Part shown: in pieces, positions 1,372-50,000 of the stretch
How positions within the stretch are numbered: position 1 is the stretch's first letter
How the letters are laid out: each line of letters begins with the position of its first letter
NCBI GenBank assembly: GCA_963694575.1
Contig: CAVOEM010000001.1
Location: 1-50,694, forward strand
Length of the DNA: 50,694 nt
Direction of reading: 5' to 3'
From: Planctomycetes bacterium UBA1146
GTDB taxonomy: Bacteria; Planctomycetota; UBA8108; UBA1146
The notes under the pieces: generated by a model
Database searches by the model: none
What the model was told of the DNA's origin: nothing
The model's input: only the letters and a program-made list of their open reading frames with translations
Made by a program: the position numbers and the translations under genes

Positions 1372-4005
1372 ATGATGAAACTGACGACTTCTATGCTCTT
1401 TTTGCTGGCGCTACTGGTTGCCGACGGTCGCCTGCTGGCCACTGATTTTTCCATCGAGGATGATTCAGCAAAGGCGAAGGAAACCACGAGATTCCCCTAC
1501 ACCGGGAGCGATACCTTTGAGGGCAAGATTCCCTCTCCCGATCAATTCTATGGAGTGAAGCTGGGAGATCGATTCACCCCTCACCACGATGTGATGGCGT
1601 ACTGTCGTGAGGTGGCGAGACTCTCTCCTCGGGTCTCGATCGAAAGGTATGGGCACTCCGTGGAGGGGCGAGAACTGGTCCTCCTGATGATTTCTGAACA
1701 GAAAACGATTTCGCGACTCGATCAGATCGAGTCCGACCTCGGATTGCTGGCGGATCCACGAGAGTTGGCGGAGAGGGAGGACCTTTCGCTGGAGGAGTTG
1801 GTGGCCCAACTGCCCGCGGTGGTGTGGCTCTCCTATAACGTGCACGGAGATGAATCCTCCGGAACCGAGGCCGCACTCGCCACGATCCATCAACTGGCGG
1901 ATGGATCGGACCCGGCGATCCGCAGAATTCGAGAGAACTGCCTGGTGATCGTCGATCCTCTGCTCAATCCCGATGGCCGCGAAAGATATCTGCACTGGTA
2001 CCAGCAAAATGGCGCAGTTCCTCCCGATCCCAATCCCGCAGCTCGAGAGCACTCCCCATCTTCACCTTCGGGTCGAAGTAATCACTACCTGTTCGACCTC
2101 AATCGAGACTGGGCCTGGCAGAGTCAGCCGGAGACGCGCGCCAGAATCCCCCAGTACCTGCGGTGGCAGCCGCAGGTCCATGTCGATTTTCATGAGATGA
2201 GTCCCCAGTCGACGTACTTCTTTTTTCCTCCGGAGGAGCCGATCAACTCCAACATTCCGGAGGATCGAGTCGAGTGGAGTCGGAAATTTGGACTCGCCAA
2301 TGCCAAGGCTTTCGATCGATTCACCTGGAGATATTACACCGCGGAGCAATTTGATCTGTTCTATCCCGCCTACGGTGATTCCTGGCCGACTCTCAATGGA
2401 GCCATCGGGATGACCTACGAGCAAGCGGGAGGGGGAAGTGCCGGCCTGGTGTATCGCCGTCGAAATGGCACCTTGTTGACACTCCAGGAACGTCTTCACC
2501 ATCACCATGTTGCAGGCCTGGCGACGGCGGATTGTGCGGCACAAAATCGAGTCCAACTGCTGATTGATTTTCATCGATTTCGGCAGGACACCATCTATGC
2601 GGGACGAGATTCCGACATCTCGCAGTTCATCATCCCGCCTGCCACAGGAGATCGACGACTGTCGTTACTGCGATTGCTGAAGGCCCAGGGGATCGAGATG
2701 GTACAGACCATCGACGAGGTCGTGGTGGAAGGGTTGGTCCATCACGATGGGACCGCTCAGGAGATCCTCAAACTGGCTCCGGGTACGGTGGTGGTCCCAC
2801 TCGATCAACCGCAAGGGCGTCTGGCCAGAACGTTGCTGGAGCCTCATGCCAGTGCCGGAGAAGCATACTTTTACGATGTCGCCGCCTGGTCGCTGCCGAT
2901 GGCATTTGGAGTCGAGACGCTGATCGCAAGCCAGCCCATCTCCGGCATCCTGATCCCACTGGGACCGATCGAGGACCCGGTCGGACGGGTCGAGCAGCAA
3001 GCCGGGGTCGCCTACCTCCATCGCTGGGAGGGGGTGTCCTCTGCCAAGGCACTGCGAGCGATTCAGAAGGGTGGCGAGCGGGTCGACTTGATCACCGAGG
3101 CGATCCAGATTCAGGGCCAGGATTTTCCGGCGGGAACCTTGGTCGTGAGAGTTTCGTCACCCGACACTCATGCTCTGGTCGAGCAGGTCGCGCGAGATAC
3201 GGGAACGGTGTTCCACGGCACCGCGAGTGGCTGGACCGACCAGGGGCCCGACCTTGGTTCTGGCACCTTCCCCGAACTGGCCCACGCTCGGATCGCGGTG
3301 CTGGGGCCCGATTCAGTCTCGAGTCTTTCCTACGGTGCGGTGTGGAGTTTTCTCGAACAGGAGATGGGCATCGAGTTCACGACCGTTTCCGCAGATCGAC
3401 TCTCTCGATCCCTCGACCTCATGGATGTGCTGGTGATTCCATCGGGTGTGAGGGGATCGTCACTGGGGGACCGCACCAAAAAGGAGCTGGCGCAGTGGGT
3501 TCGAGGCGGAGGCGTCGTGCTGGCGCTGGGTAGTAGCGCGTTTCAGATGGGAGAGTCCGGCATCGACCTGGTCTCCCAGCAGATTCGAAAAGCGGAGGAG
3601 CCGGAGGAGCAGCCGAAGAAACGGCGCACTCGAGCGGATCTTCGTGAAGAACGTCGACAGCAACAAGTGCCCGGCAACATCGTCTCGGTCGACCTGGATC
3701 CTGAGCACCCACTCTCCTTTGGTCAGCCGCCGAGGATCTACGGGTTCATCGGCAGTGCGAAGATCTTTGAACTGTCGGGAGGGGCTAGCGATGTGGGGGT
3801 GCTGCGGGAAGAGGATCCTGTGGTGAGTGGCTTCATCTCCGATGAGAACCAGCAAGCCCTCGCGGGAGGAGTGTGGCTGGTGGAGCAGGGAGTGGGACGT
3901 GGCAGGGTGGTACTATTTGCCGGAGATCCGTTGTTTCGATCGTTCTGGCGCGGAACTGCGGACCTGTTCCTGAACGGATTACTGCTGCTAGCAGAAGAAT
4001 CCTGA
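1372..4005 (+). CDS. M14 family zinc metallocarboxypeptidase, secreted, long C-terminal extension
   Basis: ORF 1210..4005. Internal ATG at 1372 is preceded by AGGAGG (1362-1367) and followed by signal peptide MMKLTTSMLFLLALLVADG. M14 motifs are present: YNVHGDESSG (HxxE zinc site), NPDGRE, FDLNRDW, VHVDFHEM. Confidence 0.9.
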   Translation: MMKLTTSMLFLLALLVADGRLLATDFSIEDDSAKAKETTRFPYTGSDTFEGKIPSPDQFYGVKLGDRFTPHHDVMAYCREVARLSPRVSIERYGHSVEGRELVLLMISEQKTISRLDQIESDLGLLADPRELAEREDLSLEELVAQLPAVVWLSYNVHGDESSGTEAALATIHQLADGSDPAIRRIRENCLVIVDPLLNPDGRERYLHWYQQNGAVPPDPNPAAREHSPSSPSGRSNHYLFDLNRDWAWQSQPETRARIPQYLRWQPQVHVDFHEMSPQSTYFFFPPEEPINSNIPEDRVEWSRKFGLANAKAFDRFTWRYYTAEQFDLFYPAYGDSWPTLNGAIGMTYEQAGGGSAGLVYRRRNGTLLTLQERLHHHHVAGLATADCAAQNRVQLLIDFHRFRQDTIYAGRDSDISQFIIPPATGDRRLSLLRLLKAQGIEMVQTIDEVVVEGLVHHDGTAQEILKLAPGTVVVPLDQPQGRLARTLLEPHASAGEAYFYDVAAWSLPMAFGVETLIASQPISGILIPLGPIEDPVGRVEQQAGVAYLHRWEGVSSAKALRAIQKGGERVDLITEAIQIQGQDFPAGTLVVRVSSPDTHALVEQVARDTGTVFHGTASGWTDQGPDLGSGTFPELAHARIAVLGPDSVSSLSYGAVWSFLEQEMGIEFTTVSADRLSRSLDLMDVLVIPSGVRGSSLGDRTKKELAQWVRGGGVVLALGSSAFQMGESGIDLVSQQIRKAEEPEEQPKKRRTRADLREERRQQQVPGNIVSVDLDPEHPLSFGQPPRIYGFIGSAKIFELSGGASDVGVLREEDPVVSGFISDENQQALAGGVWLVEQGVGRGRVVLFAGDPLFRSFWRGTADLFLNGLLLLAEES

Positions 4006-21019: not shown

Positions 21020-22015
21020 ATGAACCGATGGAAGCCGTTGCTGATCGCCCTGTCCCTCTCCTCGACACTCCTGCTGGCCCAGGAGGCCGCTCGGGAACCC
21101 GCTCAGGTCCCCGCGCAGGTCTCCGCTCAGGTCCCCGCGCAGGTCTCCGCGCAGGTCTCCGCTCCGGTCTCCGCTCCGGAGCAGTTCCACTTCTCGTCGC
21201 TGGGAAAATCACTGCCGGAGTTGAAACTCGAGGAGGGCGATCGCTGGTTCAACGCCACCAAGGGCCTCTCTGTCGCTGCATCACCTCTCACTGTATTGGG
21301 GCGTGGCAAGCCGCTGCTGGTCGCCTATACGATTCCTGGCTGAGAGTGTTGTGCTCCGGCATTGCCCAGCCTGGTCAGGTGGCAGCAAGAAGTGGGACCC
21401 GAGTTCTTGTCGATGATGACTGTTTTCAGTTACTCGTCCAGGCAACCGGAACTGGTCCAGAAATTCATCGACAAGAACCAGGTGACCTTCCCCATCCTGT
21501 CGGAGCAGGCCAGCAACATCGAGCGCCACGGCGTGAAGGGGTTCCCTTCCGCCTTCTTCCTCGATTCCACAGGCAAGGTGATCTGGCAGGGGATCCTGCC
21601 CCGTGCCTTCGAGTCCAATGACTATCAGCGCCCCTGGCTCGACGGTCTGTTGCGTCAGGCAGGAGTCGAACCGCCGCCGATTCCCATCCGTTGGCTCGAT
21701 TTTGACGAGGGAGTCGAGGAATCGCAGTGGACCTCGGAGACTCGACTGATCTTCGTCGAGGCGAACCGATGTGATCAGTCGGAGCGGATCGAACGATTAT
21801 TGGCACAAGATGAAGAGATCGCAGGTCTGCTCAACGATTACATCCGGGTCAAGATCGATGGTCGAGCTCAGTTGGATATCGTCAAGAAGTACCGAGGCCA
21901 CTGGCCCGGAGATCTGCTCATCATCGATGCCAAGGACCAGGTGCTCTATCGATTCCGGGACCACTACAAGGACATCCCTGCGCTCAAGAAGGCGCTCTAC
22001 GATCACGCCAACTGA
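21020..22015 (+). CDS. secreted TlpA/ResA-like thiol-disulfide oxidoreductase, candidate selenoprotein (UGA 21341-21343 read as Sec), with a second thioredoxin-like domain
   Basis: ATG 21020 follows GGGGGAGGAG. Signal peptide MNRWKPLLIALSLSSTLLLAQ. Track ORFs 20912..21343 and 21362..22015 are in the same frame, separated only by TGA plus 6 sense codons. Read-through gives GKPLLVAYTIPG-U-ECCAPALPSL, which aligns column-for-column with WC-xx-C-xxx-x-P-x-L of TlpA (U on Cys1, C at +3, P at +8). Downstream FPILSE..HGVKGFPSAFFLDSTGKVIW completes the fold. The C-terminal domain carries CDQS. If the TGA is not recoded, this is a split gene or pseudogene. Confidence 0.6.
21095..21178 (+). repeat. coding 12-bp tandem repeats (GCGCAGGTCTCC-like) encoding an (A/P)QVS/PAQV linker
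   Basis: EPAQVPAQVSAQVPAQVSAQVSAPVSAP, directly after the signal peptide of the Trx-like protein. Confidence 0.85.
21362..21385 (+). promoter_or_regulatory. candidate bacterial SECIS hairpin
   Basis: UUGCC-CA-GCCU-GGUC-AGGU-GGCAG. Hand-paired as 9 bp (two G-U), with a 2-nt 5' bulge and apical loop GGUC starting about 30 nt after the UGA. That is within the 16-37 nt spacing, and the loop begins with G, as in published bSECIS models. Not energy-evaluated. Confidence 0.4.
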
Positions 22016-22036: not shown

Positions 22037-23641
22037 TCAGGGGCAAGCAGCGCTGGTGGTCGGGCAGTCGAGAGTGTTGCCGAGCGGATCGGTCCCGCAG
22101 GTCGGGTATGGAGCATCCAGAGGGGGAGAACCGGGGACAAAGAGTGCATTCAACCCGTAGACCATGTCTGCGATGTTGAAACTACCATCATCATTGATAT
22201 CGCAACTCTCGATGCAATTCGGAGATACCCCTCCCGGCACGAACAGCGCATTGAGCCCGTACACGATGTCCGCAACATTGAAACTGCCATCTTCGTTGCC
22301 ATCTCCGCGGATGAATCGAATCACCGATCCAGAGGAACCGTTGTGATAGATCAATGAATAGGGTGGGACCCCCGGAATCTCGCGCAGCTGGTAGGTGACA
22401 TCGAGACTGAAGGAAGTGTTGTTGAAGGCGGGGTACAGCGTGCCTCGGATGGTCGGATAGATGTAGGCGTGCTGGCCGAGTGTGGTCGGTTGTAACTGCT
22501 CGACCACCTCGAACTCGGGGGAGGTGGCGAGTTTTTGTGCCAGCACCAGATCGCCTTCGTTGGCGAGGTCTCGGTACACGGCATGGACCGTGCCGGAGGT
22601 CTCGTCGCAGCCGATGTTAAAGATCTTGTAGTTGGCGATGTTGGTGACCTGGTCGCTGCTGGCATCGAACAGAGTGGTCTCGTCACTCCAGCCATTGATT
22701 TCGTCCCACCTGCGGTAGCGGAAACTCCACAGCGGCGAGCCGGAGGCGGCGTCGACGACATAGGCACTGTGCACATTTCCAAGCGCATCGCTGGAGAGCC
22801 AGCCGAAGTAGTCATTGCTGCCGGTGGTATTGCCGAGCACGAAGGTATCTGCCTGCCAGCCGGCGGCCCCCGATGGTCCGATGGTCGGGTCGTAGATGCG
22901 GTGCTCGTAGACCCCCGGTGGGGTGTTGCGATAGAAACTGCAATGGATGCGGCCGCTGTCATCGACCGCCAGACGCGTGTTCTGGGCACTGGCCGAGGGA
23001 CTGAAAGCCCCCAGGTCGGTGAAGGAATCATCTGCCGCGTAGGGTTGATCGCTACGCAGCAGGTGCTCGACCCAGCTGGAGGGGTGGTGCCCCGAGATCC
23101 ACACCGTGTTGTTGCCATCGATGACGATGTCCATCGCCGAGGTGCGAGCATTGAGTGGGGCACCGGTGATGGTGCTGATCTCGATGATGTCGGAACGGTC
23201 GCCGGTGGCGGGATCGAAGCGGCGGTAAAACTGGCGAAAGTACGACGGGTAGGTGTACCGACCCCACAGTACGTGGAGGATCCCCTGGTCATCGATGGCG
23301 ACCGAGCATTGGCTGGCGGGATCGGGATCGAACAGGCCACTGTCGTCGTCGTTGAGATTGGGCGGCTGGGTCCACCAGGTGGCACCTCCATCCGAGGAAC
23401 TCTGGACAATCAGAGCCATCTCGTCGGCGGCATTTCGCTCCAGAGAGACACAGTGAAGCACGCCATCGTCATCGCGAACCATGTTGTGCGAGGTATTCGA
23501 TCCAGACGAGGCCATCTCATCGCTGTGCAGGATCACCTGAGCCGAGGACATCACGCTGCAGCAGAGCAGCACAAGCGATGCGAGAATGCCAACGATGGTT
23601 CTCCTCGGGTGCGGGTAGTGGTCCATCATCCCGTTCTTCAT
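22037..23641 (-). CDS. secreted six-bladed beta-propeller (BNR/Asp-box, sialidase-like fold) with C-terminal dockerin-like/Cys-Pro module
   Basis: Signal/TM IVGILASLVLLCCSVMSSAQ. One Asp-box (SSSDGGATW) and six recurring D-D-x-G-x-x-H blade motifs (DDDGVLHCV, IDDQGILHVL, VDDSGRIHCS, DALGNVHSAY, ETSGTVHAVY..). 92-aa tail FIRGDGNEDG..CPTTSAACP. The start ATG overlaps the upstream gene's stop (TGATG). Confidence 0.8.
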   Translation of the reverse strand: MKNGMMDHYPHPRRTIVGILASLVLLCCSVMSSAQVILHSDEMASSGSNTSHNMVRDDDGVLHCVSLERNAADEMALIVQSSSDGGATWWTQPPNLNDDDSGLFDPDPASQCSVAIDDQGILHVLWGRYTYPSYFRQFYRRFDPATGDRSDIIEISTITGAPLNARTSAMDIVIDGNNTVWISGHHPSSWVEHLLRSDQPYAADDSFTDLGAFSPSASAQNTRLAVDDSGRIHCSFYRNTPPGVYEHRIYDPTIGPSGAAGWQADTFVLGNTTGSNDYFGWLSSDALGNVHSAYVVDAASGSPLWSFRYRRWDEINGWSDETTLFDASSDQVTNIANYKIFNIGCDETSGTVHAVYRDLANEGDLVLAQKLATSPEFEVVEQLQPTTLGQHAYIYPTIRGTLYPAFNNTSFSLDVTYQLREIPGVPPYSLIYHNGSSGSVIRFIRGDGNEDGSFNVADIVYGLNALFVPGGVSPNCIESCDINDDGSFNIADMVYGLNALFVPGSPPLDAPYPTCGTDPLGNTLDCPTTSAACP

Positions 23642-26034
23642 CAGGGACAGGCCAGATACAGGGCGCAGTCAATACCATCATCGGTCGGATCGACGCCGCA
23701 ATCGAGAGCGCCCGGCGCCGGTGGATTGTCCGATCCCGGCACGAACAGTGCGTTGAGCAGGTAAACCGCATCGGCGACGTTGTTTCCGCCGTCGTCATTG
23801 ACATCTGCACTGTCGATACAATCGGGCTGGGGCGATCCAGGAACGAACAGGGCGTTGAGCAGGCGGATGGCATCGGCGATGTTGACACCGCCATCGACGT
23901 TGACATCCCCACGGCGGAACAGTTCCGGTGGTGGACCGCTACTGGCTCCGAGAGCATCGAGGTAGAGGCCCATCAGGAGACCCTGCTCGCCGCTGTAGCC
24001 ACCGAACTCCCACGACTGCGCGATCACCTCGCCAAACGGATCATCGGTCTCGTAAAAGTTACCGACGCTGTAGCCGATGCCCGATTGGACCCAGATGGAG
24101 CCGCTCGAGGCTCCCGCCAGGTCCGGCGTGAGGGGATCTGCGGTGACCAGCCGATCGGTCCAGTCGCTGGCCGCCTGGTCCTGGTTGTATGCGGCATCCA
24201 TTCCGGTCATATCAAGCGTGGCATAGGAACCACCGATCAAGTCCAGTAACGAGTCGTCGCCATCGACCACTCCCAGTCCGATCCCGTCATAATCAGCGAA
24301 GGAAGTCTGGGCACAGTATCCCCACACATCGCCGCCCTCGATGTAGACATCGATGCCGTTGGCGATCAGGTCCGCCAGCAGTTGACCTTCTGCAGTGCTC
24401 AAGCAATAATGATCGGGATAGGTGCCAGTGGCCACCCAGACCCGCTCGAGGGTTGGCGTGTCGAGTAGACAATCACAACCGAGGATGTCCGTCATCATTG
24501 CCGGGGCGAGCCCGTTGAGCACCAGCGCATCGGCGATCGCCAGTGCCGAGTCGATCTGACCACCACTCCCTTCAGCGGCCCACACCAGATCGATGGCATT
24601 GACCAGTGCCCAGATAGCATTTCCATCGATGACACAGCAGGGGGTGACCGAGTCGTCCCAGCAGCGCAGCTGGTAGTGGTAGGAAGCGGGTCCGCCGGGA
24701 AGGACATCGGTCCACTGCTGATCACTTCCAGCCAAGGTCTCAGCGAGCTGTCCATCGCGATACACATCGATGCTGGTGAAGTTGTTGCCGTTGAGGTCCC
24801 AACTGAGAGTCACTTCATTGCCACTGGTGGCGGCGGTGAAGTCGATGGGAGGGGTGAGCTGACAGGGCGGGCCACTACGATGGTGGATGGCCCATGCCTC
24901 GAGATCTCCAAATTCGCCCCCGGTGTAGTCGGCCGCGATCAGGCGCCAGTTTCCATCGATGGGGAAGCCGGCAAAATCGGCGAGGGTGCCGGGCCCCTGA
25001 GGTTGCATGCGGATGTTGAGTGGAATCTGGTCCTCATCGAAGGGGATTCCCTGGTCATCAAAGATGGTGTGAATGTGATTCACATCGCTGGGAGACCCGG
25101 GGATGTACTGTTTCAAGGTCACCATCGTGGCCGATGGATGCGTCAGGTCGATCCCCACTTCTCGAGTCCAGGTGTGAGTGATATGGACCTCGATATCGAT
25201 GTCCTGAATCGTGTAGTTGTCGGTGATGTTGATCACCGAGGTGACTCCCGTCGGGGTGCTGTTGGGAATCGGCAGTGGCGTGTCGAGACTGCCGTAGATC
25301 TCGAATCCATGGGGGACATCAATTCGGTCGGTGAAATCGAAGCAGGCGCCGTCAGAGACGACGATCAGATAGTTGTAGGCTCCCTGGCAAAGATTGTTGT
25401 CGGTCCAACTGGTCGCAGCGGGGTCGGCGATGTCCTGGTAGAAGACCCCGTCACGCCAGATCTGAAAAGTGTCGGTGTATGGACCATTGTTGGTGAACTC
25501 GAGGGTGATGTCGGGACCCACCGAGGACGCCACCAGCGCGTCAGGTGCGGTGAGACCACACGGCTCCAGTTCGAGGAGACCATAGGTACTGACATTGTTG
25601 GCGATCTCGTTGATGTCATTCCACAGGTAGGGGGAGGCCTCGAGGGTGTGGACCATGTCCTCGTTGTTGGAGTTGTTGGGTTCCCCGGCATTCCAGTTGC
25701 TGTACACCAGCGGTTCGCCGTTGCTCCATTCGAAGACACCCTCGACCGCGATGTCATTGAGACCCAGCCACAAGCGCCGTGAGGAGCCGCCAAAGTTTCT
25801 GAAGTTGTCCGCGATGAAATCCATCTCCGCCTGGTCTGCAACGGCCACGAGGTTACCGCCCCAGCTGTTGGCGAGAGTTTCAGCAGTGGTCCAGTCGCTG
25901 GTATCCAGCAACAGGTAGTGATGGTCATCCAGCGGACTGGAGATGCTGGTCAGGATGGCCGGATCCTGAGCCTGCAACGGAGTGACCCAGATGGTGATGA
26001 TCAGTAAAGAGACTACGGAATTGAGAAACTTCAT
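23641..26034 (-). CDS. secreted C-type lectin domain / proprotein-convertase P-domain protein with C-terminal dockerin-like/Cys-Pro module
   Basis: RBS GGAGG. Signal MKFLNSVVSLLIITIWVTPLQAQ. CTLD: LWLGLNDIAVEGVFEWSNGEPLVYSNWNAGEPNNSNNEDMV..LWNDINE. P-domain: IDIEVHITHTWTREVGIDL..IDGNWRLIAADYTGGEFGDLEAWAI. 92-aa tail FRRGDVNVDG..CALYLACP. Confidence 0.85.
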   Translation of the reverse strand: MKFLNSVVSLLIITIWVTPLQAQDPAILTSISSPLDDHHYLLLDTSDWTTAETLANSWGGNLVAVADQAEMDFIADNFRNFGGSSRRLWLGLNDIAVEGVFEWSNGEPLVYSNWNAGEPNNSNNEDMVHTLEASPYLWNDINEIANNVSTYGLLELEPCGLTAPDALVASSVGPDITLEFTNNGPYTDTFQIWRDGVFYQDIADPAATSWTDNNLCQGAYNYLIVVSDGACFDFTDRIDVPHGFEIYGSLDTPLPIPNSTPTGVTSVINITDNYTIQDIDIEVHITHTWTREVGIDLTHPSATMVTLKQYIPGSPSDVNHIHTIFDDQGIPFDEDQIPLNIRMQPQGPGTLADFAGFPIDGNWRLIAADYTGGEFGDLEAWAIHHRSGPPCQLTPPIDFTAATSGNEVTLSWDLNGNNFTSIDVYRDGQLAETLAGSDQQWTDVLPGGPASYHYQLRCWDDSVTPCCVIDGNAIWALVNAIDLVWAAEGSGGQIDSALAIADALVLNGLAPAMMTDILGCDCLLDTPTLERVWVATGTYPDHYCLSTAEGQLLADLIANGIDVYIEGGDVWGYCAQTSFADYDGIGLGVVDGDDSLLDLIGGSYATLDMTGMDAAYNQDQAASDWTDRLVTADPLTPDLAGASSGSIWVQSGIGYSVGNFYETDDPFGEVIAQSWEFGGYSGEQGLLMGLYLDALGASSGPPPELFRRGDVNVDGGVNIADAIRLLNALFVPGSPQPDCIDSADVNDDGGNNVADAVYLLNALFVPGSDNPPAPGALDCGVDPTDDGIDCALYLACP

Positions 26035-26278
26035 AACTCCTCCGGAGGGCTGGAGAGATTGGAAATTGTAGGGACAGAGCCATTTACCATTTTCCCCTTC
26101 ATCGACCGGGATACAAGGATTGAAAATAAGGGCCGCAGGGAGCCGAATAACCGGTGCAGGAGGCGGTTGAGTGGGCTTCTGCCTCGCTCTCGCGGCTCAT
26201 CCGTGGCTGTGGAAGCGCTTTTATGGCGGCGGCTGGGTCGAGGATGAGGAACGGCTCAGAGTGGCTCAGATCGAGTTG

Positions 26279-26344
26279 GGCCTGCTCGAACTGGATCTAA
26301 ATCGAGCAGGCCGTGGACCCCTTCCGATCGATCGAAAGGGGTCC
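26279..26344 (-). terminator. two consecutive perfect hairpins downstream of the 26367 gene
   Basis: GGCCTGCTCGA-12 nt-TCGAGCAGGCC (26279-26312) and GGACCCCTT-12 nt-AAGGGGTCC (26315-26344). They start about 25 nt past the stop of the minus-strand gene. No clear U-tract. Confidence 0.5.
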
Positions 26345-26366
26345 GCGGCGTCTCTTGACCCGAGAA

Positions 26367-28787
26367 TCAGGGGCAAAGGTTGAAGGAAGTACATCCGAGC
26401 CCGCCGGGCCCATCGGGGCCACAATCGGGGAAAGGTGCCGCTGGCTCGGATCCACCTGCGAACATGTAGCCGATCAGATGCACCACATCGGAAACGTCGA
26501 CCTGATTATCCCCGTTATCATCGAGGCTTGCCAGACAACTCACCGGTGATCCATTGAAGAGGAAGCCGAGGGTGTTGACCGCATCGCTGACATCGAGGCT
26601 TCCATCAATATTGGTATCGCCACGGATGTAGGTGACGGCTCCGCCTCCTCCACATTCATCGGGAGTGCCATCGCCATCATTGTCGGCGCTGGTCCCGTTC
26701 GCGATATCGCACTCATCGAGGACACCATTGAGATTGCAGTCATTTGCTGCAGTGATCTCACAGCCGTCGTGAATACCATTACCATTGCAGTCTGGAATTC
26801 CTGCTCCGGCGATGGAGATGTCGAGTCCCCAGGTCTGAAGGGAACCGGAATCTCCTCCGGCATTATCCGAGATGGTAAGGGTCCAGTTGCCCAGACCGCT
26901 GGCTCCATCGAAAGTGGACAGTGGCGAGGCAGGAGGAGTGGATCCTGGGCTGCCATCGTCGTCGTAGATCGCGTTGATGTCATCGGAAGAACCGCCAGTC
27001 TGGCTGTGCAAGTTGACGGTGGTGCCGGAAGGATTGGCCACCGAGATGGCGAGATCGCCGATCCAGGTGTGAGTCAGGTCTAGCGCCACATCTATATCGT
27101 CGACCAGTCCTACCTGTGTGACCTCGATGATCCGGATCACCGGAGGCAAGTTGTCGGCGATCGGCGCCGGCGGGGAGACATTGTCGACATAGGAGAAGAT
27201 TCCTGCAGCCTCACAGATATCGAGAACTCCGTTGGCATCGCAGTCTGTGGCGGGATTCGCTGCGATCTGGCAACTATCGATGGACCCGTCGAGATCGCAG
27301 TCCGTTTCGCTTCCCAGGTCAATTTCACAACTGTCGAGCACTCCATCAAAGTCGCAATCCGCTGCACCTGAAGAGATCTCGCAGGTGTCAGGGATGAAAT
27401 TCCCATTGCAGTCGAGTGCGCCATTGATCAGTTCACAGGCATCGGCAATTCCGTCGTTGTCACAGTCTTCCTGGCATTCATCGAGCAGTCCATTTCCATC
27501 GCAATCGGATGCGCCGTTGGCGATTTCATCCCCATCTGGAATGCCGTTATTGTTGCAATCGAGATTGCCGACCATCGGAGCGAGGGTGGTCACCAGCAGA
27601 GTGTCCACGGCACCGGGTTGGAACAGCCCGAGAGTCGCATTGGCAGCGGTGGGTGGAGAGGTGGTCACGAAGCGGAAGTTGTACATCGTTCCCCAACGAA
27701 GTGCGTTGGCGTTGGGGTTCTGTGCAAAGGTTTGAGTCGACCAGTTGATTTCCCCGTTGGCGGTAGACACCGCCCAGTCGGTTCCATCGTAGATCTCGGT
27801 GCTGTGGTACTCGACATCGCGGAAACCGACATCGCTGGCGATCACACCCAGCAGCGGCACGGAGAAACTGCGTACCGCGCGGGTCGAGTCCATGTTGTAA
27901 AGAGCGTACTCGTATCGCCACAGGTTGGCATTCAGTTGGATGACCTTGTATCCGAGGATCAAGAGTCCGTCTCCAGCGTCCGAGATGTCGACCAGAGTCA
28001 CAGTCGGATCATTGTCTTGCCACGCCTGGATGCCTGGCTGTTGCCGCTGGGTCGATCCAACAAAGGTGATGGCGTGATTGGAAGTGGAGGAGGAGACGGA
28101 GACCTGTCGGTAACTGGTGTTATTGTGATGATTGCCTGCGGCAGCATCGTCGGGGGTGACATAATGTCCCTCGACGAAGTACTGGGCTCCAACATTGGTC
28201 GACGAGTCCAGGTCACTCCCGTGAACGCGCAAGCGACGCCAGGTCAGATCACTGTTGCCGGGGTCGAGGTTCTGCGGATAGATGAATCCACCGTGGGCCG
28301 GATCGGTCACCTCTGAGCGAGCGCCGAGGCTTCCCTGGCTACCATTCAAACTGGCTCCGTAGGGATCGGAGCAACCGACCCCGAGCCGGCTACCGGTTCC
28401 CGAAGAGACGCAGCCGCAACCACAGGTGTTTCCCTGCAAAGCGGTGAATCCGTGCTTGAGCCAGCTCATGCCGATCTGCTCGAGCACTCCATCCTTGAGG
28501 CGAAACATGTTTTGACCGATCACCGGGTGCTGATTGGTATTGGAGATCCAGAGCAGTTCCTCGGTGCCGATGTTGCAGGATGTGGTTCCCACTGAATAAG
28601 CGTAATAGCCGCCCGCTGAACCGTAACTCTGGGTGCCGGTCAACTCACCGACGATCACATCCGCTCCGGTGCCACCGAGGCCTCCGCCCGGATCACACTG
28701 GGCGTCGAGAGAGGTGGAGAAGAGCATCGTCATGGCTGCAGCAAGAAGGGAGAGGATCCCGAGGATCCGCTGCTTGGAAAGTGTCAT
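26367..28787 (-). CDS. large secreted protein: uncharacterised about 400-aa N-terminal domain, DCNGNG-type Cys/Asp repeats, P-domain, C-terminal dockerin-like/Cys-Pro module
   Basis: Signal MTLSKQRILGILSLLAAAMTMLFSTSLDAQ (ATG 28787; the track ORF runs to 28826). N-domain with a CGCGC motif. At least 10 repeats such as DCNNNGIPDGDEI, DCDGNGLLDECQ, DCNGNFIPDTCEI. P-domain DIDVALDLTHTWIGDL..GNWTLTISDNAGGDSGSLQTWGL. 87-aa tail YIRGDTNIDG..CTSFNLCP. Confidence 0.85.
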   Translation of the reverse strand: MTLSKQRILGILSLLAAAMTMLFSTSLDAQCDPGGGLGGTGADVIVGELTGTQSYGSAGGYYAYSVGTTSCNIGTEELLWISNTNQHPVIGQNMFRLKDGVLEQIGMSWLKHGFTALQGNTCGCGCVSSGTGSRLGVGCSDPYGASLNGSQGSLGARSEVTDPAHGGFIYPQNLDPGNSDLTWRRLRVHGSDLDSSTNVGAQYFVEGHYVTPDDAAAGNHHNNTSYRQVSVSSSTSNHAITFVGSTQRQQPGIQAWQDNDPTVTLVDISDAGDGLLILGYKVIQLNANLWRYEYALYNMDSTRAVRSFSVPLLGVIASDVGFRDVEYHSTEIYDGTDWAVSTANGEINWSTQTFAQNPNANALRWGTMYNFRFVTTSPPTAANATLGLFQPGAVDTLLVTTLAPMVGNLDCNNNGIPDGDEIANGASDCDGNGLLDECQEDCDNDGIADACELINGALDCNGNFIPDTCEISSGAADCDFDGVLDSCEIDLGSETDCDLDGSIDSCQIAANPATDCDANGVLDICEAAGIFSYVDNVSPPAPIADNLPPVIRIIEVTQVGLVDDIDVALDLTHTWIGDLAISVANPSGTTVNLHSQTGGSSDDINAIYDDDGSPGSTPPASPLSTFDGASGLGNWTLTISDNAGGDSGSLQTWGLDISIAGAGIPDCNGNGIHDGCEITAANDCNLNGVLDECDIANGTSADNDGDGTPDECGGGGAVTYIRGDTNIDGSLDVSDAVNTLGFLFNGSPVSCLASLDDNGDNQVDVSDVVHLIGYMFAGGSEPAAPFPDCGPDGPGGLGCTSFNLCP

Positions 28788-28937
28788 GGGTTCCCTTTCG
28801 GGGTCATCTCTGACCACGATGTTCAATCGACGGGCCTACCCATTGTATTGTCAAGAAAAGGTCGGATCGAGGAGCGATTTCAAATCAACGGGAGCAGAAT
28901 CGCAGGGAAGTCAGGAGAGTGACCTGTAGAGGGATGG

Positions 28938-28987: not shown

Positions 28988-29063
28988 TGGAGCTGGCGAC
29001 GGGAGTCGAACCCATGACCTCAGCTTTACGAAAGCTGTGCTCTACCAACTGAGCTACGCCAGC
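28988..29063 (-). tRNA. tRNA-Thr (anticodon CGT), CCA encoded
   Basis: Hand-folded: GCTGGCG-TA-GCTC-AGTTGGTA-GAGC-A-CAGCT-TTCGTAA-AGCTG-AGGTC-ATGGG-TTCGACT-CCCGT-CGCCAGC-T-CCA. All stems are Watson-Crick. Confidence 0.95.
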
Positions 29064-29189: not shown

Positions 29190-30125
29190 TCAGCGAGAGG
29201 ATTCGACCTCGGGCATCTCGCTATGAGGGTGATCTGAACGGTGTCGCTCGGAGATTTTCTCGCTACTGAGGTGGTTGTAGACCTGGGTGGTGGCGAGATG
29301 TTTGTGGCCGAGAAGTTCCTGTACCTGCCGTAGATTGGCGCCACGGTCGAGCAGGTGAGTCGCATACGAGTGGCGCAGGGTATGGGGACTGGTTCGACTG
29401 TCGAGGCCCGCCTTGCCGATGTATCGGTCGAGGATCTTGCGGATCGATCGATCGGAGATGCGATCACCGAAGCGATTCAACAGCACCGGGTGAGGGCTCC
29501 AGTTTCCATCCTCGGGTTGCCAGCGTGCAGGGATCGCTTCCTGGTAACTGAAGAGAGCGGTCAGCGCATGCTCGCCGATGGGAACGATGCGCTCCTTGCG
29601 TCCCTTTCCGTAGGCTCGAACCAGACGCGCAGGACCGTCGATGTGCAGCCAGTCGAGAGCGACCAGTTCACTGACCCTGAGGCCGGTGCTGTAGAGGATT
29701 TCGAGGATGGCTCGATCTCTCAGCCCGCGGTACGTGTTGGTCTCTGGTTGATCCAGTAGACGCAAGACTTCCTGAACGGAGAGGAAGTGGGGCAGTGCAC
29801 GGGGCACCCGCGGTGTACTCAACTCGAGAAACGCGCAGCGTCCTTCGATCCGACCTTGGCCGGTGAGGAAGCGGAAGTACCCACGAATCGATGCGAGTTT
29901 TCGGGCCACCGTGCTGCGCGAATAACCGACCTCTGCGAAGTGAGCCAACCAGCGGCGAACCTCGGTGCTCTCCTTGGTGGCAATCAGTGAGAGATCCTTG
30001 ACCTCAAAGAAGTCACGGAGTTGTTCGAGGTCCTTGCGGTAGGCCCGGAGAGTTTCCGGGCTCAGGTTCCGCTCTGTTTCGAGGTGTTTGAGGAACGAGT
30101 CCATCGAATTTGTACCCACTTCCAT
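29190..30125 (-). CDS. tyrosine site-specific recombinase XerC/XerD family
   Basis: N-terminal SAM-like domain (FLKHLETERNLSPETLRAYRKDL). Catalytic region ..HTLRHSYATHLL..LLGHKHLATTQVYNH. Alternative ATG at 30104. Confidence 0.85.
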   Translation of the reverse strand: MEVGTNSMDSFLKHLETERNLSPETLRAYRKDLEQLRDFFEVKDLSLIATKESTEVRRWLAHFAEVGYSRSTVARKLASIRGYFRFLTGQGRIEGRCAFLELSTPRVPRALPHFLSVQEVLRLLDQPETNTYRGLRDRAILEILYSTGLRVSELVALDWLHIDGPARLVRAYGKGRKERIVPIGEHALTALFSYQEAIPARWQPEDGNWSPHPVLLNRFGDRISDRSIRKILDRYIGKAGLDSRTSPHTLRHSYATHLLDRGANLRQVQELLGHKHLATTQVYNHLSSEKISERHRSDHPHSEMPEVESSR

Positions 30126-43993: not shown

Positions 43994-44100
43994 GGTGTGA
44001 GAGGTGGTTCTCAGGGCATATAATGGACCGATACCGTCAAGGTCCCGCTAGTTACTCATCTCGAGTGCCCTTTCGGGGGCGACTTTTCACGGAGGCTTCC

Positions 44101-46542
44101 ATGTCCACCTCATTCAGAACTCACTGGATGCTGATCATTTGCATCACTTGCACCATCTTTGGTGGCTTGATCGCAATCGGTCACGATAACGACCCCAAGG
44201 CGAGAGATCGTCAGCCTCCCTACACCGGTCCGGGGTATCGCAGCGCGCTGCCAGGGCCACAGCCGTTCGGTCCGGTCGGGGGATTCCCTTCCGATGGAAT
44301 CAACTTGCAGGCGTGGATCCCCTTGCCCGAGATGCAAGCGGGCATCTCCAGCGGCAACGATTGCTGGGGCTACACTTCTCCCAGCGGGCGTGAGTATGCA
44401 CTGATGGGGCATTCCAGTGGTACTACGGTGATCGAGGTCACCAATCCAGGAAACCCCAACATCCTCGGAACCATCACCGGTCCCAACAGTCTCTGGCGAG
44501 ATGTGAAGACTTATCAGAACTTCGCCTATGCGGTTTCCGAAGGGGGCGGTGGGATCCAGGTCATCGACCTTTCCGATGTGGATAACGGTAATATCCCCCT
44601 GACCAACACCATCACCACCGGGGGAGGACTCTCCTCGCACAATGTCGCCATCGATACCGATTCGGGTTACCTGTACCGATGTGGTGGTGGCGGCAACGGA
44701 CTGCGCTTTTACAACCTCATCAATCCGGGCACTCCGCAGTTCGAGGGCAGCTGGACCGATCGATATGTGCATGATGCTCAGATCGTCGAGATGCAGGCGG
44801 GTCCCTTCGCCGGCAGCCAGGTGGCGTTTCTCTGTACCGGCAATGGTCCGGTGAGTTTCGATATCCTCGATATCACCAACAAGGCTAACGTCATACTGCT
44901 GGGACAGTTGATCTATCCGGGTGGGGCCTACAGCCACCAGGGATGGTTGTCCCCCGATCAGCAGTACTTCTACCTCGGAGATGAGCTAGACGAGGGGCCA
45001 GGGGTTCCGACCAAGACTTTCGTGATCGATGTTTCCGATCTGACCAATCCGGTCCTGATGGATGAATACACCAACGGCAACAGTGCCATCGGCCACAACA
45101 TCTACACCGTCGATAATCTGGTCTACGAGGCGAATTATCGCAGTGGACTTCGTATCCTCGACGGATCGAACCCTCTCAACATGACCGAGGTCGCCTACTT
45201 CGACACTTACCCCGCCGATGACAACAGTAACTTCAACGGTCTGTGGAGCGTTTACCCCTACTTCCCCAGCGGCACCATCATCGGTAGTGACCTGGAGCGG
45301 GGTCTGTTTGTCTGGTCGATAGGGGCGACTCCTTTGACCTTCTCTTATCCGGCAGGATTGCCGGACCAGCTCAATCCCTTTGGTGACAGCCTGACGCTTC
45401 AGATCGTCCCGGGATCGGGCTTCGTGATCGATACCCAGAGCACGACGCTGTGGTTCAACGATGGAAGCGGCTGGATGTCGAGCCTGATGAATCAGGTGGC
45501 CCCTGGCAGTGTCGAGTACCTCGCTCTCTTCCCCGCCTTTGATTGTGGTACCGATGTGCAATGGTATGTCGAAGCCAGCGTGATCGGTGGTGGAGCCACC
45601 ACCGACCCGCCAGCGGCACCGGTTTCCTTTTACAGTGCTCCCGCGATGCTGGGGGTCGATACACTCCTGTCCGACGACATGGAACAGGATCCAGGCTGGA
45701 CCGTCGGGGCGGCTGGCGATAATGCCACCACAGGAGTCTGGACGCGGGTGGCCCCGATCGGCACTGCAGCGCAGCCTTCCGCGGATCATTCGGTGGTCGG
45801 CACCAACTGCTGGGTCACAGGCCAGGGCAGTGCCGGTGGGGCTCTCGGTGAGAATGATGTCGACGGCGGCGTGACCACGCTGATCTCCCCCAATTACGAT
45901 CTTTCCGCAGCCAACAGTCCGATCATCAGTTACTGGCGCTGGTTCTCCAACAACAGTGGAGCCGGCCCGGGAACCGATACTTTCCGCGTCGATATCAGTG
46001 CCAACGGAGGTACTACATGGACCTCGGTGGAAGTGATCGGCCCGACCGGCAACTTCACTTCTGGAGGTTGGTTTCAACATCAGTTCCAGGTCGAGGATTT
46101 TGTGGCATTGACCGCGACGGTGCGCCTGCGGTTCCAGGCCGAGGATGTGGCCGCAGCTTCGATCGTCGAGGCTGCCGTCGATGATCTGGTGGTGGGCGAA
46201 CTGTTCTGCAACGACTGCAACGGCAATGGCGTCGCAGACGATCAGGATATTGCCAGTGGCACCAGTCAGGACTCCAATAACGATGGGTTCCCCGACGAAT
46301 GTCAGTGCACTCCCTGGGTCCGAGGTGAACTCAACGACGACGGCAACATCGATCTCTCCGATGCGGTGACCCTGTTGATCTACCTCTTCAGTGGCGGCCC
46401 GACCCCTGATCCTGAAGGTCGCGGAGACGTCAACGATTCGGGCCAGATCGATGTGGCCGATGTGATCTACCTGGTCGAGTACCTGTTTGCCGCTGGATCA
46501 CCGCCACCGGCGCCCTTCCCCAATCCGGGAGGCTGCCCCTAG
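44101..46542 (+). CDS. secreted LVIVD-repeat beta-propeller (choice-of-anchor-B-like) plus jelly-roll domain, with short C-terminal dockerin-like/Cys-Pro module
   Basis: ATG 44101 follows GGAGG. TM/signal WMLIICITCTIFGGLIAIG. CWGYTSPSGREYA, LWRDVKTYQNFAYAVSEGGGGIQVIDLSD, SHQGWLSPDQQYFYLGDELDE and GHNIYTVDNLVYEANYRSGLRILD match my recollection of the choice-of-anchor B/LVIVD family. One CNDCNGNGVADDQD repeat. 75-aa tail WVRGELNDDG..PFPNPGGCP. Confidence 0.8.
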   Translation: MSTSFRTHWMLIICITCTIFGGLIAIGHDNDPKARDRQPPYTGPGYRSALPGPQPFGPVGGFPSDGINLQAWIPLPEMQAGISSGNDCWGYTSPSGREYALMGHSSGTTVIEVTNPGNPNILGTITGPNSLWRDVKTYQNFAYAVSEGGGGIQVIDLSDVDNGNIPLTNTITTGGGLSSHNVAIDTDSGYLYRCGGGGNGLRFYNLINPGTPQFEGSWTDRYVHDAQIVEMQAGPFAGSQVAFLCTGNGPVSFDILDITNKANVILLGQLIYPGGAYSHQGWLSPDQQYFYLGDELDEGPGVPTKTFVIDVSDLTNPVLMDEYTNGNSAIGHNIYTVDNLVYEANYRSGLRILDGSNPLNMTEVAYFDTYPADDNSNFNGLWSVYPYFPSGTIIGSDLERGLFVWSIGATPLTFSYPAGLPDQLNPFGDSLTLQIVPGSGFVIDTQSTTLWFNDGSGWMSSLMNQVAPGSVEYLALFPAFDCGTDVQWYVEASVIGGGATTDPPAAPVSFYSAPAMLGVDTLLSDDMEQDPGWTVGAAGDNATTGVWTRVAPIGTAAQPSADHSVVGTNCWVTGQGSAGGALGENDVDGGVTTLISPNYDLSAANSPIISYWRWFSNNSGAGPGTDTFRVDISANGGTTWTSVEVIGPTGNFTSGGWFQHQFQVEDFVALTATVRLRFQAEDVAAASIVEAAVDDLVVGELFCNDCNGNGVADDQDIASGTSQDSNNDGFPDECQCTPWVRGELNDDGNIDLSDAVTLLIYLFSGGPTPDPEGRGDVNDSGQIDVADVIYLVEYLFAAGSPPPAPFPNPGGCP

Positions 46543-47007: not shown

Positions 47008-50000
47008 ATGATGATTCCCTGCTCTTCAGCGATGCCGACTTCGAAGATCTACCCCAAAGATAGAGATAGAGGCGGAGTTCTTTTCTTTGCCATCGCCTTG
47101 TTTATTGCGGGGTGGGTCACTCCTTTCGCCTATGCGCAGACGGGGTCGGGCCCCGTGAAAGTCTTTATTCTGGCGGGGCAATCGAACATGGAGGGGCATG
47201 GTGAAATCAGCCCGATCGGAACACCGGGGACGCTCGAATACAGTTTGAGTAACAATCCTACGATGTATGGGCACCTTACCGACGGTACCAACTGGGTTGA
47301 GCGAAACGATGTATGGATCTGGTACAACCGTGGGGGCACCACAGTCGTGAGTGGTCATCTGACAGCGGGCTATGGCGCATCGGATACAACGATGGGTCCA
47401 GAACTACAGTGGGGTCATGCTCTTGGAGATCTCTATGACGAACCGGTGCTGTTGATCAAAACCGCATGGGGCGGAAAGAGCTTGGCGGTTGATTTCAGAC
47501 CCCCGAGTTCGGGCTGGAGTGTCAATCCTCCGGTGGCACCCGGGGATCAGGGTTACTACTACCAAGAGGTGTTGGATACGGTCAGTGATGTTTTGACGAA
47601 TCTGCAGAGCTACTTCCCCGACTATAATGGTCAAGGTTATGAGCTGGTCGGATTGGGTTGGCATCAGGGCTGGAACGATCGTGTGAATCAATCCTACAAC
47701 GATGAGTACGAACAAAATCTAGAGAACTTTATCCAAGACATCCGGGTGGATTTGGCGACTCCCAATCTTCCATTTGTCCTCGCGACTACCGGCATGTCGG
47801 GGTGGAGCGAGACACACCCCCGGGCGCTCTCGTTGATGGCTGCGCAGTTGGCGATGGAAGATTTCAGCGTCTATCCGCAGTTCGAGGGAAATGTGGCAGT
47901 CGTGGAAACCCGCGACTTCTGGCGCGATGCCGCGGTCTCACCGGCAGATCAGTCGTATCACTGGAATCGCAATGCCGAGACCTATTTCCTGATCGGCGCC
48001 GCCATGGCTCAGGAAATGAACCTGTTGCTCAATCCGCCAAGCGGATCTGAAACCATCGACGCGGTCTACTTTGGCCAGACTCATGTCAAGAAACCGACCG
48101 ATCCCTACTTTGGTTTGGTCAGTCAAAGGGAAGCGCTCATCAAAGTCCATGTGGTGGATCCTACCACCCCTGCGGCACCACCGGTGACCGCAGTGCTCAA
48201 CCTCAACGGACAATCGATGAGTTTGAATCTCAGCGGCCCTGCGACGCTGCCCGCTTCCATCGCCGACGGCCCCGGTGTGGTACAGCACAATTTCGATAAC
48301 AGTTTCACGGCCACCATCCCTGCGGATTGGGTGCAGCCCGGTTTGCAGGTGACGATCAATGCTGGGACCGCCAGCACCTCGGTGACCAATCTGCAGATCG
48401 GTGCACCGAATCGGATGATCATGACGATGTTTGATGTGCAGTATTTCTCAGAGACCAATGGTGATTACCCGGCAGGGACTTTCGAAGAGCTTGAATCGAA
48501 GTGGCCGATTTCCGATTTGGAAATGCGCCGTTTGGAGAACGTGGTGTTTCCAGAGCTGGTCATTCCGCCACGGGCGAATCTGCCCGCTGCCCGGGTGAAA
48601 TCACAGGCGGAGTATCTGGAGCAGACGGGTCAGCCCTTTGATGGCGAGCAAGCGGCGGCCTTGGCCTGGAACGGGGCCTTGAGACGCGCCGGAGGTCGCT
48701 CTAGCTGTTACTCCCTTTCCTACATCAACATCTATGGGGTCAACGCCGGCGGACAGGCGGGCGGTTGTGCCGGAGTGGGCAACGGAACTTCCCAAGGAGT
48801 CCTGATTCATGAATTGGGACACGCCCTCTCCCTTCCCCATTGGGCCAACGATCCCAACTATCCTTATGTCGGCAGCATGTTCGGCATCGATATTCCTGGA
48901 ACCAACAACTTCCATGCGGGTCCGACATGGGCCTTTGATGCCCCGAGCCAGACCTTCATTCCACCGACGGTACAGCCCAACAATGTTGGCTTTCAGCAGC
49001 CGGGGACCTACAAGGTGGATCCGATGCAGGGGGGTGGAAATGGGTTTCAGGAGCCTCCGTTCCTGATGAATCACTTCTCGGATTACTCGATGAACCAGAT
49101 GCGAAACTACCTCGAAGGAAATCTGGTCGTCTGGAATGACAGCCTCGGTCAGTACGCCACCTGGAATCAGGGCACCGCCGATTACACGAACATCGTTTCC
49201 AATAACGGCATCCAATTCCCCCTCGAACGTCATCAACAGGTCTACAGCGTGATGGCATCCGTGTCGGGGGCGAATCCTACCGTCAACATGGCGTACCCGC
49301 CGATCGGTCCCTACACCGGAGGCCTGATTCAGCTATTCGATCCGACGAGTGCCGACGATCGAGCGTTGGCACAGGCGATCTTTGCCCCCTCCGGGGGCTG
49401 TGATGTTTGTGTCAGAGTCACACAGGGCGGCATCGTCAAGACCTATATGTTGGCGGCCTCATGGGAGCCAGGCATCGATCCACTTCAAGGGAACAGTCTT
49501 CGAACCGAAGCGATCAATTTGCCCGCAGCTGCTGGAGAAATCACCCGTATTCAGTTGTTGCTCACGCCCGATGCGGAAATCAATGGTCTTCCGACCGACC
49601 CCGAGATTCTTTTTACCTGGGCGAAGGTGACTCCCGATCCTGCGGCCTTTGATTTGGCTCCGACGGCCGGAAGTTCGTCAGCCATCACTATGAGAGCCGT
49701 TTCTGGAACGAGCAGTACAGGAGAGCCCCTTGAATATCTCTTCACAGAGATGAGTGGGAATCCGGGTGCGACTTCGAGTGGCTGGCAGCCGAGTGCCGCC
49801 TACACCGATATCGGACTGCAGCCGGCGACTCCATACTCATATCTTGTGACGATGCGTTCAGGTCTCTATGAAACCGATCCATCCGACATCCACTTTGCGA
49901 CGACTCATCCTTCAGGTGTATCAGGAGTGATCACGGTGGAGGCTACCGCTCAATTCGCGATGCAGAATGGCGATGGGCTCAATGCTGTGACAGGTCTCGC

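Follow-up and report, generated by a model that had tools for sequence, protein, structure and literature searches.

Why do five large, apparently exported proteins encoded on a single stretch of planctomycete DNA end in the same module of 75-92 amino acids (aa), and what is this module for? The stretch, called the window here, comprises all 50,694 nucleotides at positions 1 to 50,694 (forward strand) of contig CAVOEM010000001.1, from Planctomycetes bacterium UBA1146 (assembly GCA_963694575.1), an uncultured marine planctomycete. Judged by profile and structure-model comparisons, the core of the module (its first ~60 residues) is a homologue of type I dockerins, and it is followed by a tail rich in proline (Pro) and cysteine (Cys). 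We propose that this tailed dockerin is probably a docking tag that would place exported proteins on cohesin-bearing partners, forming a putative extracellular assembly. The feature is real, widespread and largely unannotated; what is new is the tail variant, which stands within a system that was proposed earlier.

A first reading of the window, made from the sequence alone (hereafter the sequence-only reading), had reported five shared C-terminal modules. All five are present, each as the extreme C-terminus of a large open reading frame (ORF), and a hydrophobic, signal-peptide-like segment can be recognised by eye at the N-terminus of all five host proteins. The copies share 43-57% pairwise identity with copy 2, and a hidden Markov model (HMM) built from the five matched the same five in a six-frame translation of the window, with nothing further above noise. 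In the list below, copies 1-3 (22037-22315, 23641-23919 and 26367-26630) lie on the minus strand, and the cysteines of the long form are numbered C1 (in the linker between the two core repeats) to C4 (the terminal one).

22037-23641, minus strand: gene 1, secreted protein of 534 aa; module at 22040-22315, stop codon at 22037-22039
23641-26034, minus strand: gene 2, secreted protein of 797 aa with a C-type lectin domain (Pfam Lectin_C), a P_proprotein P-domain and the C-terminal module
23734-23919, minus strand: predicted dockerin core of copy 2 (module residues 1-62), two repeats of a calcium (Ca) loop plus helix
23644-23733, minus strand: Pro/Cys tail of copy 2 (module residues 63-92), SDNPPAPGALDC(C2)GVDPTDDGIDC(C3)ALYLAC(C4)P
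26367-28787, minus strand: gene 3, secreted protein of 806 aa with Cys/Asp-rich repeats, a P-domain and the module at 26370-26630
44023-46542, plus strand: gene 4, choice-of-anchor B / LVIVD protein of 839 aa (longest ORF) with a short-form module at 46315-46539
47008-50694, plus strand, cut by the window end: gene 5, sialate O-acetylesterase-like SASA domain, peptidase M66 and the module from 50596

Gene 5 is complete on a contig of identical context that comes from the same population (L076), where it encodes 1283 aa with the C-terminus DCDTYSCP (full ending ...ACGVDPTGDALDCDTYSCP*); with this copy completed, all five copies end in Cys-Pro. Shortly past the window end lie two further module genes. 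One encodes an esterase-like protein of 749 aa, in which the module immediately follows the signal peptide, and the other a protein of 1564 aa with the module at its C-terminus; this makes seven module genes in ~65 kb.

The sequence-only reading had recognised the dockerin pattern in the DxNxDG loops of the module, and Pfam, profile matches to the PDB and structure prediction all agree with this assignment. Two DxNxDGxxxxxD-type Ca loops, each followed by a helix, can be read directly in all five copies; in copy 2 the repeats are DVNVDGGVNIAD..LLNALF and DVNDDGGNNVAD..LLNALF, with C1 in the linker between them. Identity between the two repeats of a copy ranges from 11 to 20 of 24 positions and reaches 19-20 in copies 1 and 2 (19 in copy 2), an internal symmetry that is typical of dockerins and supports the dockerin identity. 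Against Pfam Dockerin_1 (PF00404; gathering cut-off 22.9 bits), the whole proteins carrying copies 2, 4 and 1 scored 29.8, 22.0 and 16.6 bits, and the gene 3 protein gave no match, so that scores are marginal for three of the four complete copies; the copy 2 module alone scored 34.8 bits, above the cut-off, and 50 of 80 family members matched at E<=0.01. A profile of these 80 members found solved dockerins in the PDB, including the Cel48 dockerin 2y3n_B (E=1.8e-6), CelS and Doc918; the match is confined to profile positions ~29-86, where the two Ca-loop/helix repeats lie.

The predicted structure tells the same story. An AlphaFold2 (AF2) model of copy 2, built from the 80-sequence alignment, has a mean predicted local distance difference test score (pLDDT) of 95, with 96-99 in the core and a helix after both loops. 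In a Foldseek search of the PDB with this model the top 31 matches were all type I dockerins (probability 0.72-1.0), with target-normalised template modelling (TM) scores of 0.34-0.85 over ~55-73 residues, or 0.64-0.85 when only the single-dockerin chains among the first ten matches are counted; the best dockerin matches superposed with a root-mean-square deviation of 1.5-2.4 A over ~60 residues. We considered a generic EF-hand protein and ruled it out, calmodulin-type Foldseek matches reaching a TM score of only ~0.17.

The family to which the five copies belong is very large. A profile of the four complete copies, searched against a library of 1.84 billion proteins, retrieved 45,603 cluster representatives at E<=1e-3, of which 24,036 also passed E<=1e-10, numbers which point to a real family and not to chance likeness. 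Proteins identical to those of the window, or >90% identical, occur in a dozen marine metagenome-assembled genomes (MAGs) labelled 'Planctomycetota bacterium', and the species representative JAAZXB01 bin110s gave a 100% identity match in a genome scan. In that scan, matches covering module residues 1-85 of 92 came almost entirely from Planctomycetota; those from Bacteroidales, Ignavibacteriales, GN15, Calditrichaeota and Eubacteriales reach no further than residue ~59-69 and thus lack the tail. In Engelhardtia mirabilis Pla133, a planctomycete in culture, an ORF of 852 aa (locus L045, NZ_CP036287.1 6548230-6568505) ends in a variant tailed module (...GLGTPCDCP), which makes experiments feasible.

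The tail, the last ~30 residues, follows the consensus GS-PPPAPFP-x-C-G-x-DPT-x-D-x-L-x-C-xxxxx-C-P. No PDB match, by sequence profile or by Foldseek, extends over the tail of copy 2, which AF2 models as ordered (pLDDT 90-93). Because HMM alignment of the tail was unreliable and smeared the Cys column frequencies, Cys residues were scored as present or absent with anchors and regular expressions in 396 module copies. C1 is found in 99% of them, and two classes prevail, C1+C2+C3+C4 (n=229) and C1+C3 only (n=129). C2 and C4 occur together (co-occurrence table [[137,27],[3,229]], Fisher p=6e-74, phylogeny being ignored in the statistic), and about 22 of the 27 cases of C4 without C2 are mis-anchored matches of the regular expression, as can be seen in the tails. 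A third, optional Cys pair, RGD-C...C-D, also co-varies (p=2e-30). The co-variation of C2 with C4, together with the class that has only C1 and C3, suggests disulfides C1-C3 and C2-C4. On the simplest reading, the first would hold the tail to the inter-repeat linker and the second would close its end.

The window copies are less uniform than the sequence-only reading had it, which gave four Cys to each long form: copy 1, with the C-terminus DCPTTSAACP, has five in the module. Copy 4 is a short form without C1-C3, whose lone module Cys is the terminal one (GGCP), and a CQC motif lies just upstream of the module. Short terminal-Cys dockerins of this kind, with CC before the module, a linker Cys and an end in ...PPCP or ...PVPC, are present in Ignavibacteriales and GN15 MAGs, and therefore recur beyond Planctomycetota:

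L064:1487-2917, L065:7598-10204 and L060:1638-5408: short terminal-Cys dockerin proteins outside Planctomycetota

Where in proteins the tailed module stands was counted in 69 loci from species-representative genomes with 108 tail-bearing copies, a set biased by the scan seeds RGD[GV]N[EVD]DG[GS] and [LG]LNALFVPG, which derive from a 4-sequence alignment of close copies. Most scorable copies (90 of 106) finish no more than 5 residues before the stop codon; 16 of the 108 stand directly after a signal peptide. The best-scoring library proteins hold 2-12 copies in N-terminal, internal and C-terminal positions, complete tails included, and up to 7 full copies were seen in tandem. The C-terminal position that the sequence-only reading considered fixed is thus the prevailing one only. 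The same is true of its 'invariant' terminal Cys-Pro, which all five window copies have, as do only 66 of the 90 C-terminal copies in the genome loci (61-73% across datasets). Among 217 four-Cys copies at the C-terminus, 175 have one residue after C4, which is Pro in 132; C, CQ, CR and CL were seen as other endings. In internal copies Pro follows C4 in just 8 of 73 cases, which argues that the terminal Pro belongs to the free C-terminus and not to the fold. Occurrence at the N-terminus, inside proteins and in tandem speaks against a sorting signal that is cleaved off; the module is better described as a portable domain.

Two other arrangements were met among the library proteins. Seven of them, about 1070-1110 aa long (P0122, P0126-P0128, P0130, P0140 and P0154), carry 8-9 tandem tail-less dockerin repeats in mid-protein (profile positions 1-57/60), arrays unlike any canonical cellulosome component. 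The secreted mini-proteins P0044 (118 aa) and P0061 (144 aa) consist of a signal peptide and one tailed module and nothing else, and might cap cohesins or compete for them. As to the terminal Pro, carboxypeptidases of the A/B type do not release a C-terminal Pro, and the window encodes a secreted M14 peptidase without a module (1372-4005); that the Pro shields the free C-terminus from carboxypeptidases is a speculative thought.

If the module is a dockerin, which proteins would carry its cohesins? The search for such partners that the sequence-only reading had called for found candidates in relatives and in a sister MAG, and none in the window. The top hits of the library search frequently have the architecture signal peptide (SP)-module-~160 aa-module (~360 aa in all), or repeats with a period of ~240-270 aa. 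The 128 stretches between modules, 130-230 aa long and for the most part 140-200, belong to a single family. A profile built on 32 proteins of this dockerin-cohesin-dockerin (Doc-Coh-Doc) type matches solved cohesins over positions ~122-250, among them CipA (3kcp_A, E=2e-7), ScaC (5lxv_A), 2vn5_A, 1g1k_A and OlpA (3ul4_A), and Pfam Cohesin matches 10 of the 32. Alternation of the two domains is seen, for example, in P0129, which has a Pfam Cohesin match of 46 bits and 5 modules at ~240-aa spacing; proteins with such alternating Doc-Coh repeats could be placed in relatives only, and no anchoring module was identified in them.

Closer to the window, the sister MAG JABHOG01 (locus L052) encodes a 691-aa protein made up of a signal peptide, an unknown domain, a PKD domain, a region X and a two-Cys module ending in CLP. 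Region X, compared by hhalign with planctomycete cohesins after removal of the dockerin, gave a probability of 98.8% (E=1e-16), and a gene next to it encodes a 1136-aa protein with a full module at its end. The 90%-identity cluster of the PKD-X-dockerin protein includes HIG04300, MEO2150262, MBT5739307 and others, whose accessions fall in the same numeric blocks as those of the window proteins (HIG04708, MEO2150571, MBT5738964 and others) in at least 9 MAGs. These shared blocks place the putative PKD-cohesin-dockerin protein in the same MAGs as the window proteins, and we infer from them that cohesin-domain proteins are encoded in the window's own lineage. It is because of these lineage cohesins that docking or complex assembly, one of the roles suggested by the sequence-only reading, is the best reading of the module.

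In the mechanism that we propose, the module would be a planctomycete-type variant of the type I dockerin, made of two EF-hand-like Ca loops with their helices and a proline-rich tail that folds back on the core, where it would be stapled by the C1-C3 and C2-C4 disulfides. The tagged proteins would first be exported by the Sec pathway and then held non-covalently, probably in a calcium-dependent manner, on cohesins of other secreted proteins of the same organism, with the PKD-cohesin-dockerin adaptor among the likely sockets. The cargo would comprise the lectin/P-domain protein, the second P-domain protein, the choice-of-anchor B protein, the esterase/M66 peptidase and the unknown protein of gene 1, and the outcome would be a multi-protein assembly of the 'planctosome' type (see below), extracellular or on the cell surface. 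The tail would not be cleavable; it would belong to the structure of the domain, acting as a lock or clasp, and may add binding surface. The last Pro, present only at a free C-terminus, may cap the end.

A bolder version of this proposal, which we offer tentatively, is a separate and mainly planctomycete cohesin-dockerin system. SP-Coh-Doc, Doc-Coh-Doc and alternating Doc-Coh repeat proteins would self-assemble head-to-tail into extracellular polymers, by means of which abundant marine planctomycetes would present lectins, peptidases and esterases. Acting as a new binding surface or a mechanical lock, the disulfide-locked tail would set the specificity of the system apart from the Firmicute types, and the terminal Pro would keep carboxypeptidases secreted by the organism itself from attacking the exposed C-terminus.

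Several observations count against docking as described above. The window holds no cohesin, an HMM of the 128 inter-module segments finding none above noise in its six-frame translation. The placement of the PKD-cohesin-dockerin protein in the same genomes comes from accession blocks and cluster membership, with no shared contig. Its cohesin region is not recognised by Pfam Cohesin, and when a profile of the PKD-Coh-Doc family was compared directly with the PDB, PKD and dockerin chains came up and no cohesins. An AF2 model of the cohesin-dockerin half of P0391, a PKD-Coh-Doc protein of the lineage with the cohesin region at residues ~440-605, built from a 14-sequence alignment, was unusable (pLDDT 36.9), because the alignment was shallow. 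The cohesin status of this candidate thus derives from transitive profile homology. The disulfide pairing, for its part, is predicted from Cys co-variation, and both copy 4 with its one module Cys and copy 1 with its five misfit a scheme of two disulfides.

How do other explanations fare against the same evidence? The dockerin fold might do without cohesins altogether, as is suspected for many non-cellulosomal dockerins, and serve in Ca-dependent anchoring to a surface glycan, the envelope or a substrate, or simply as a stabilising calcium domain. A 50-kb window without a cohesin fits this explanation, as do the stand-alone mini-proteins and the excess of module ORFs over cohesin ORFs in the fetched loci (128 to 8, in loci that were chosen by module). 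However, many dockerins for few cohesins is the normal ratio in cellulosomes, many proteins fuse cohesin homologues to this same module at the regular Doc-Coh-Doc spacing, and cohesin homologues are present in the window's lineage, all of which makes a purely cohesin-free role unlikely in our view.

Two further explanations turn on the C-terminal end, and we consider both very improbable, the second marginally less so. The module could be a sorting or secretion tag comparable to the C-terminal domain (CTD) of the type IX secretion system (T9SS), PEP-CTERM or LPXTG, which a dedicated machine cleaves or attaches covalently, with Cys-Pro as recognition or processing site. This would account for the prevalence of extreme C-terminal copies and of Cys-Pro ends, for the use of the module in place of other anchors on the choice-of-anchor B protein, and for the NCBIfam naming of a related domain as 'dockerin domain-anchored'. 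It does not account for complete tailed copies after signal peptides, inside proteins and in tandem, nor for a confidently predicted, globular and helical dockerin-like fold with neither a transmembrane nor a basic segment; C4 varies together with C2, in the manner of an internal disulfide partner, and curated sorting-signal models (PEP-CTERM, LPXTG and T9SS CTD were tested) gave no match. The sorting role that the sequence-only reading had put beside docking is therefore not upheld. Alternatively, the module could be a covalent tether instead of a reversible plug, with its terminal Cys joined to a partner or the cell surface by an intermolecular disulfide or some other covalent bond. The sole module Cys of copy 4 being terminal, the odd number in copy 1, the thioredoxin-like gene beside the module cluster (see below) and the recurrence of short terminal-Cys dockerins in other phyla all suit such a tether. 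Yet C4 of the main class occurs only where C2 is present, which points to an intramolecular pair, the C1+C3 class has no C4 at all, and the short class has Cys just ahead of the module, CQC here and CC in Ignavibacteriales, with which the terminal one could form an N-to-C clasp.

Docking on cohesins, which we continue to favour, invites comparison with the cellulosome. The module shares with clostridial and ruminococcal type I dockerins the duplicated Ca-loop-plus-helix symmetry, a superposable predicted fold and the usual C-terminal place on secreted enzymes, and as in cellulosome systems cohesin domains are found in the same lineage. It differs from every solved dockerin that it matched in having the ~30-residue tail and the linker Cys, and from the type I dockerins of cellulosomes in its two inferred disulfides. 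Its host, unlike cellulosome hosts, is a diderm planctomycete; the sequence-only reading had described the organism as bearing lipopolysaccharide, and the presence of LpxA is consistent with this. The cargo also differs: it consists here of C-type lectin, P-domain, choice-of-anchor B, SASA esterase and M66 peptidase proteins, not of plant-cell-wall enzymes as in the cellulosome. Peer and colleagues reportedly found dockerin- and cohesin-like modules to be widespread outside cellulolytic Firmicutes, on proteins unrelated to cellulose.

A cellulosome-like logic, as suggested by the sequence-only reading, had already been published for planctomycetes as the 'planctosome', which was put forward for freshwater Nemodlikiaceae on the basis of domain annotation alone (Andrei et al., 2019, ISME J, PMC6461901). 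That model combines cohesin and dockerin, without a link to cellulose, with proprotein-convertase P-domains, TSP3 repeats and M14/M12B peptidases (PMC6461901). The window resembles it in having two P-domain module proteins, an M66 module protein and a nearby M14 peptidase, and differs in that its organism belongs to another, marine lineage and that its M14 peptidase carries no module. The passages of that paper considered here make no mention of a Cys/Pro tail, disulfide classes or Doc-Coh-Doc repeat proteins (PMC6461901).

Among curated families, the nearest model to the short copy 4 with its GGCP end is NCBIfam NF041540, 'GC-type dockerin domain-anchored protein', a curated anchoring dockerin whose cysteine-motif end is known from the name only. 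Copy 4 scores 17.4 bits against it, below the cut-off of 29, the other four copies give no match even at E<=10, and 7 of 80 family members match at E<=0.01 (best E=2.3e-4). With its 67 positions the model stops just past the second helix, and nothing in it corresponds to the 30-residue tail. The remark of the sequence-only reading that it could name no described family with the Cys/Pro tail is thus only partly true: the core belongs with Dockerin_1 and NF041540 curates a terminal-Cys type, although the window copies fall below the cut-off of the latter. Curated family models and the searchable literature yielded nothing covering the Pro/Cys tail, the Cys classes or the Doc-Coh-Doc proteins; in the same literature no paper joins dockerin, Planctomycetota and cysteine, and none names a 'GC-type dockerin'.

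Some particulars of the host genes complete the picture. A Pfam search recognised no domain in the body of gene 1, whose module scores 142 bits with the module HMM. Gene 3, which would encode 819 aa if started at an upstream TTG (28826), has a P_proprotein match of 58 bits and a module HMM score of 132 bits. Its P-domain is flanked, at residues ~410-540 and ~690-730, by runs of short Cys/Asp-rich repeats (CDxNGxxDxCE-like) that look like bacterial TSP3/calcium-binding repeats and received no Pfam call at E<=0.01. Gene 4, for which gene callers choose later starts giving 804-813 aa, matches TIGR04312 with 337.8 bits, and is the one host protein that bears out the attachment to choice-of-anchor-type domains described by the sequence-only reading. 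The SASA + M66 gene (window 47008-50694; L076:14302-18153) is missing from two otherwise collinear strain contigs (L074 and L075), in which the gene for the 749-aa esterase-like protein comes directly after the choice-of-anchor B gene; it is a strain-variable cargo gene.

Around the three-gene module cluster we note a tRNA-Thr(CGT) (28988-29063, minus strand) and a XerC/D-type tyrosine recombinase (29190-30125, minus strand) immediately upstream. A mobile island was considered and rejected, the tRNA-Thr/recombinase arrangement being kept in all four other contigs examined. On the other side, a thioredoxin-like gene (21413-22015, plus strand; Thioredoxin_7 25.2 bits, just below the cut-off) adjoins the Cys-rich module genes, and its product could be an envelope thiol-disulfide oxidoreductase. 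A 107-aa ORF (21020-21343, plus strand), also called in other contigs, has a signal-peptide-like start, a AQVPAQVSAQVPA repeat and no family match.

Cohesin-dockerin pairs are a standard example of programmable extracellular assembly and are widely used in synthetic biology. To our knowledge, nearly everything known about them comes from anaerobic Firmicutes. The present findings extend what appears to be the same docking logic to tens of thousands of protein clusters from planctomycetes that are abundant in the ocean, with a cargo that seems directed at glycoproteins and peptides and not at cellulose. If docking on cohesins is the true role, the disulfide-stapled dockerin and its own cohesins would make a new orthogonal plug-and-socket pair and offer a way to test the so far purely bioinformatic planctosome idea. 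They may also give a clue to how planctomycetes retain enzymes at their surface while degrading marine organic matter.

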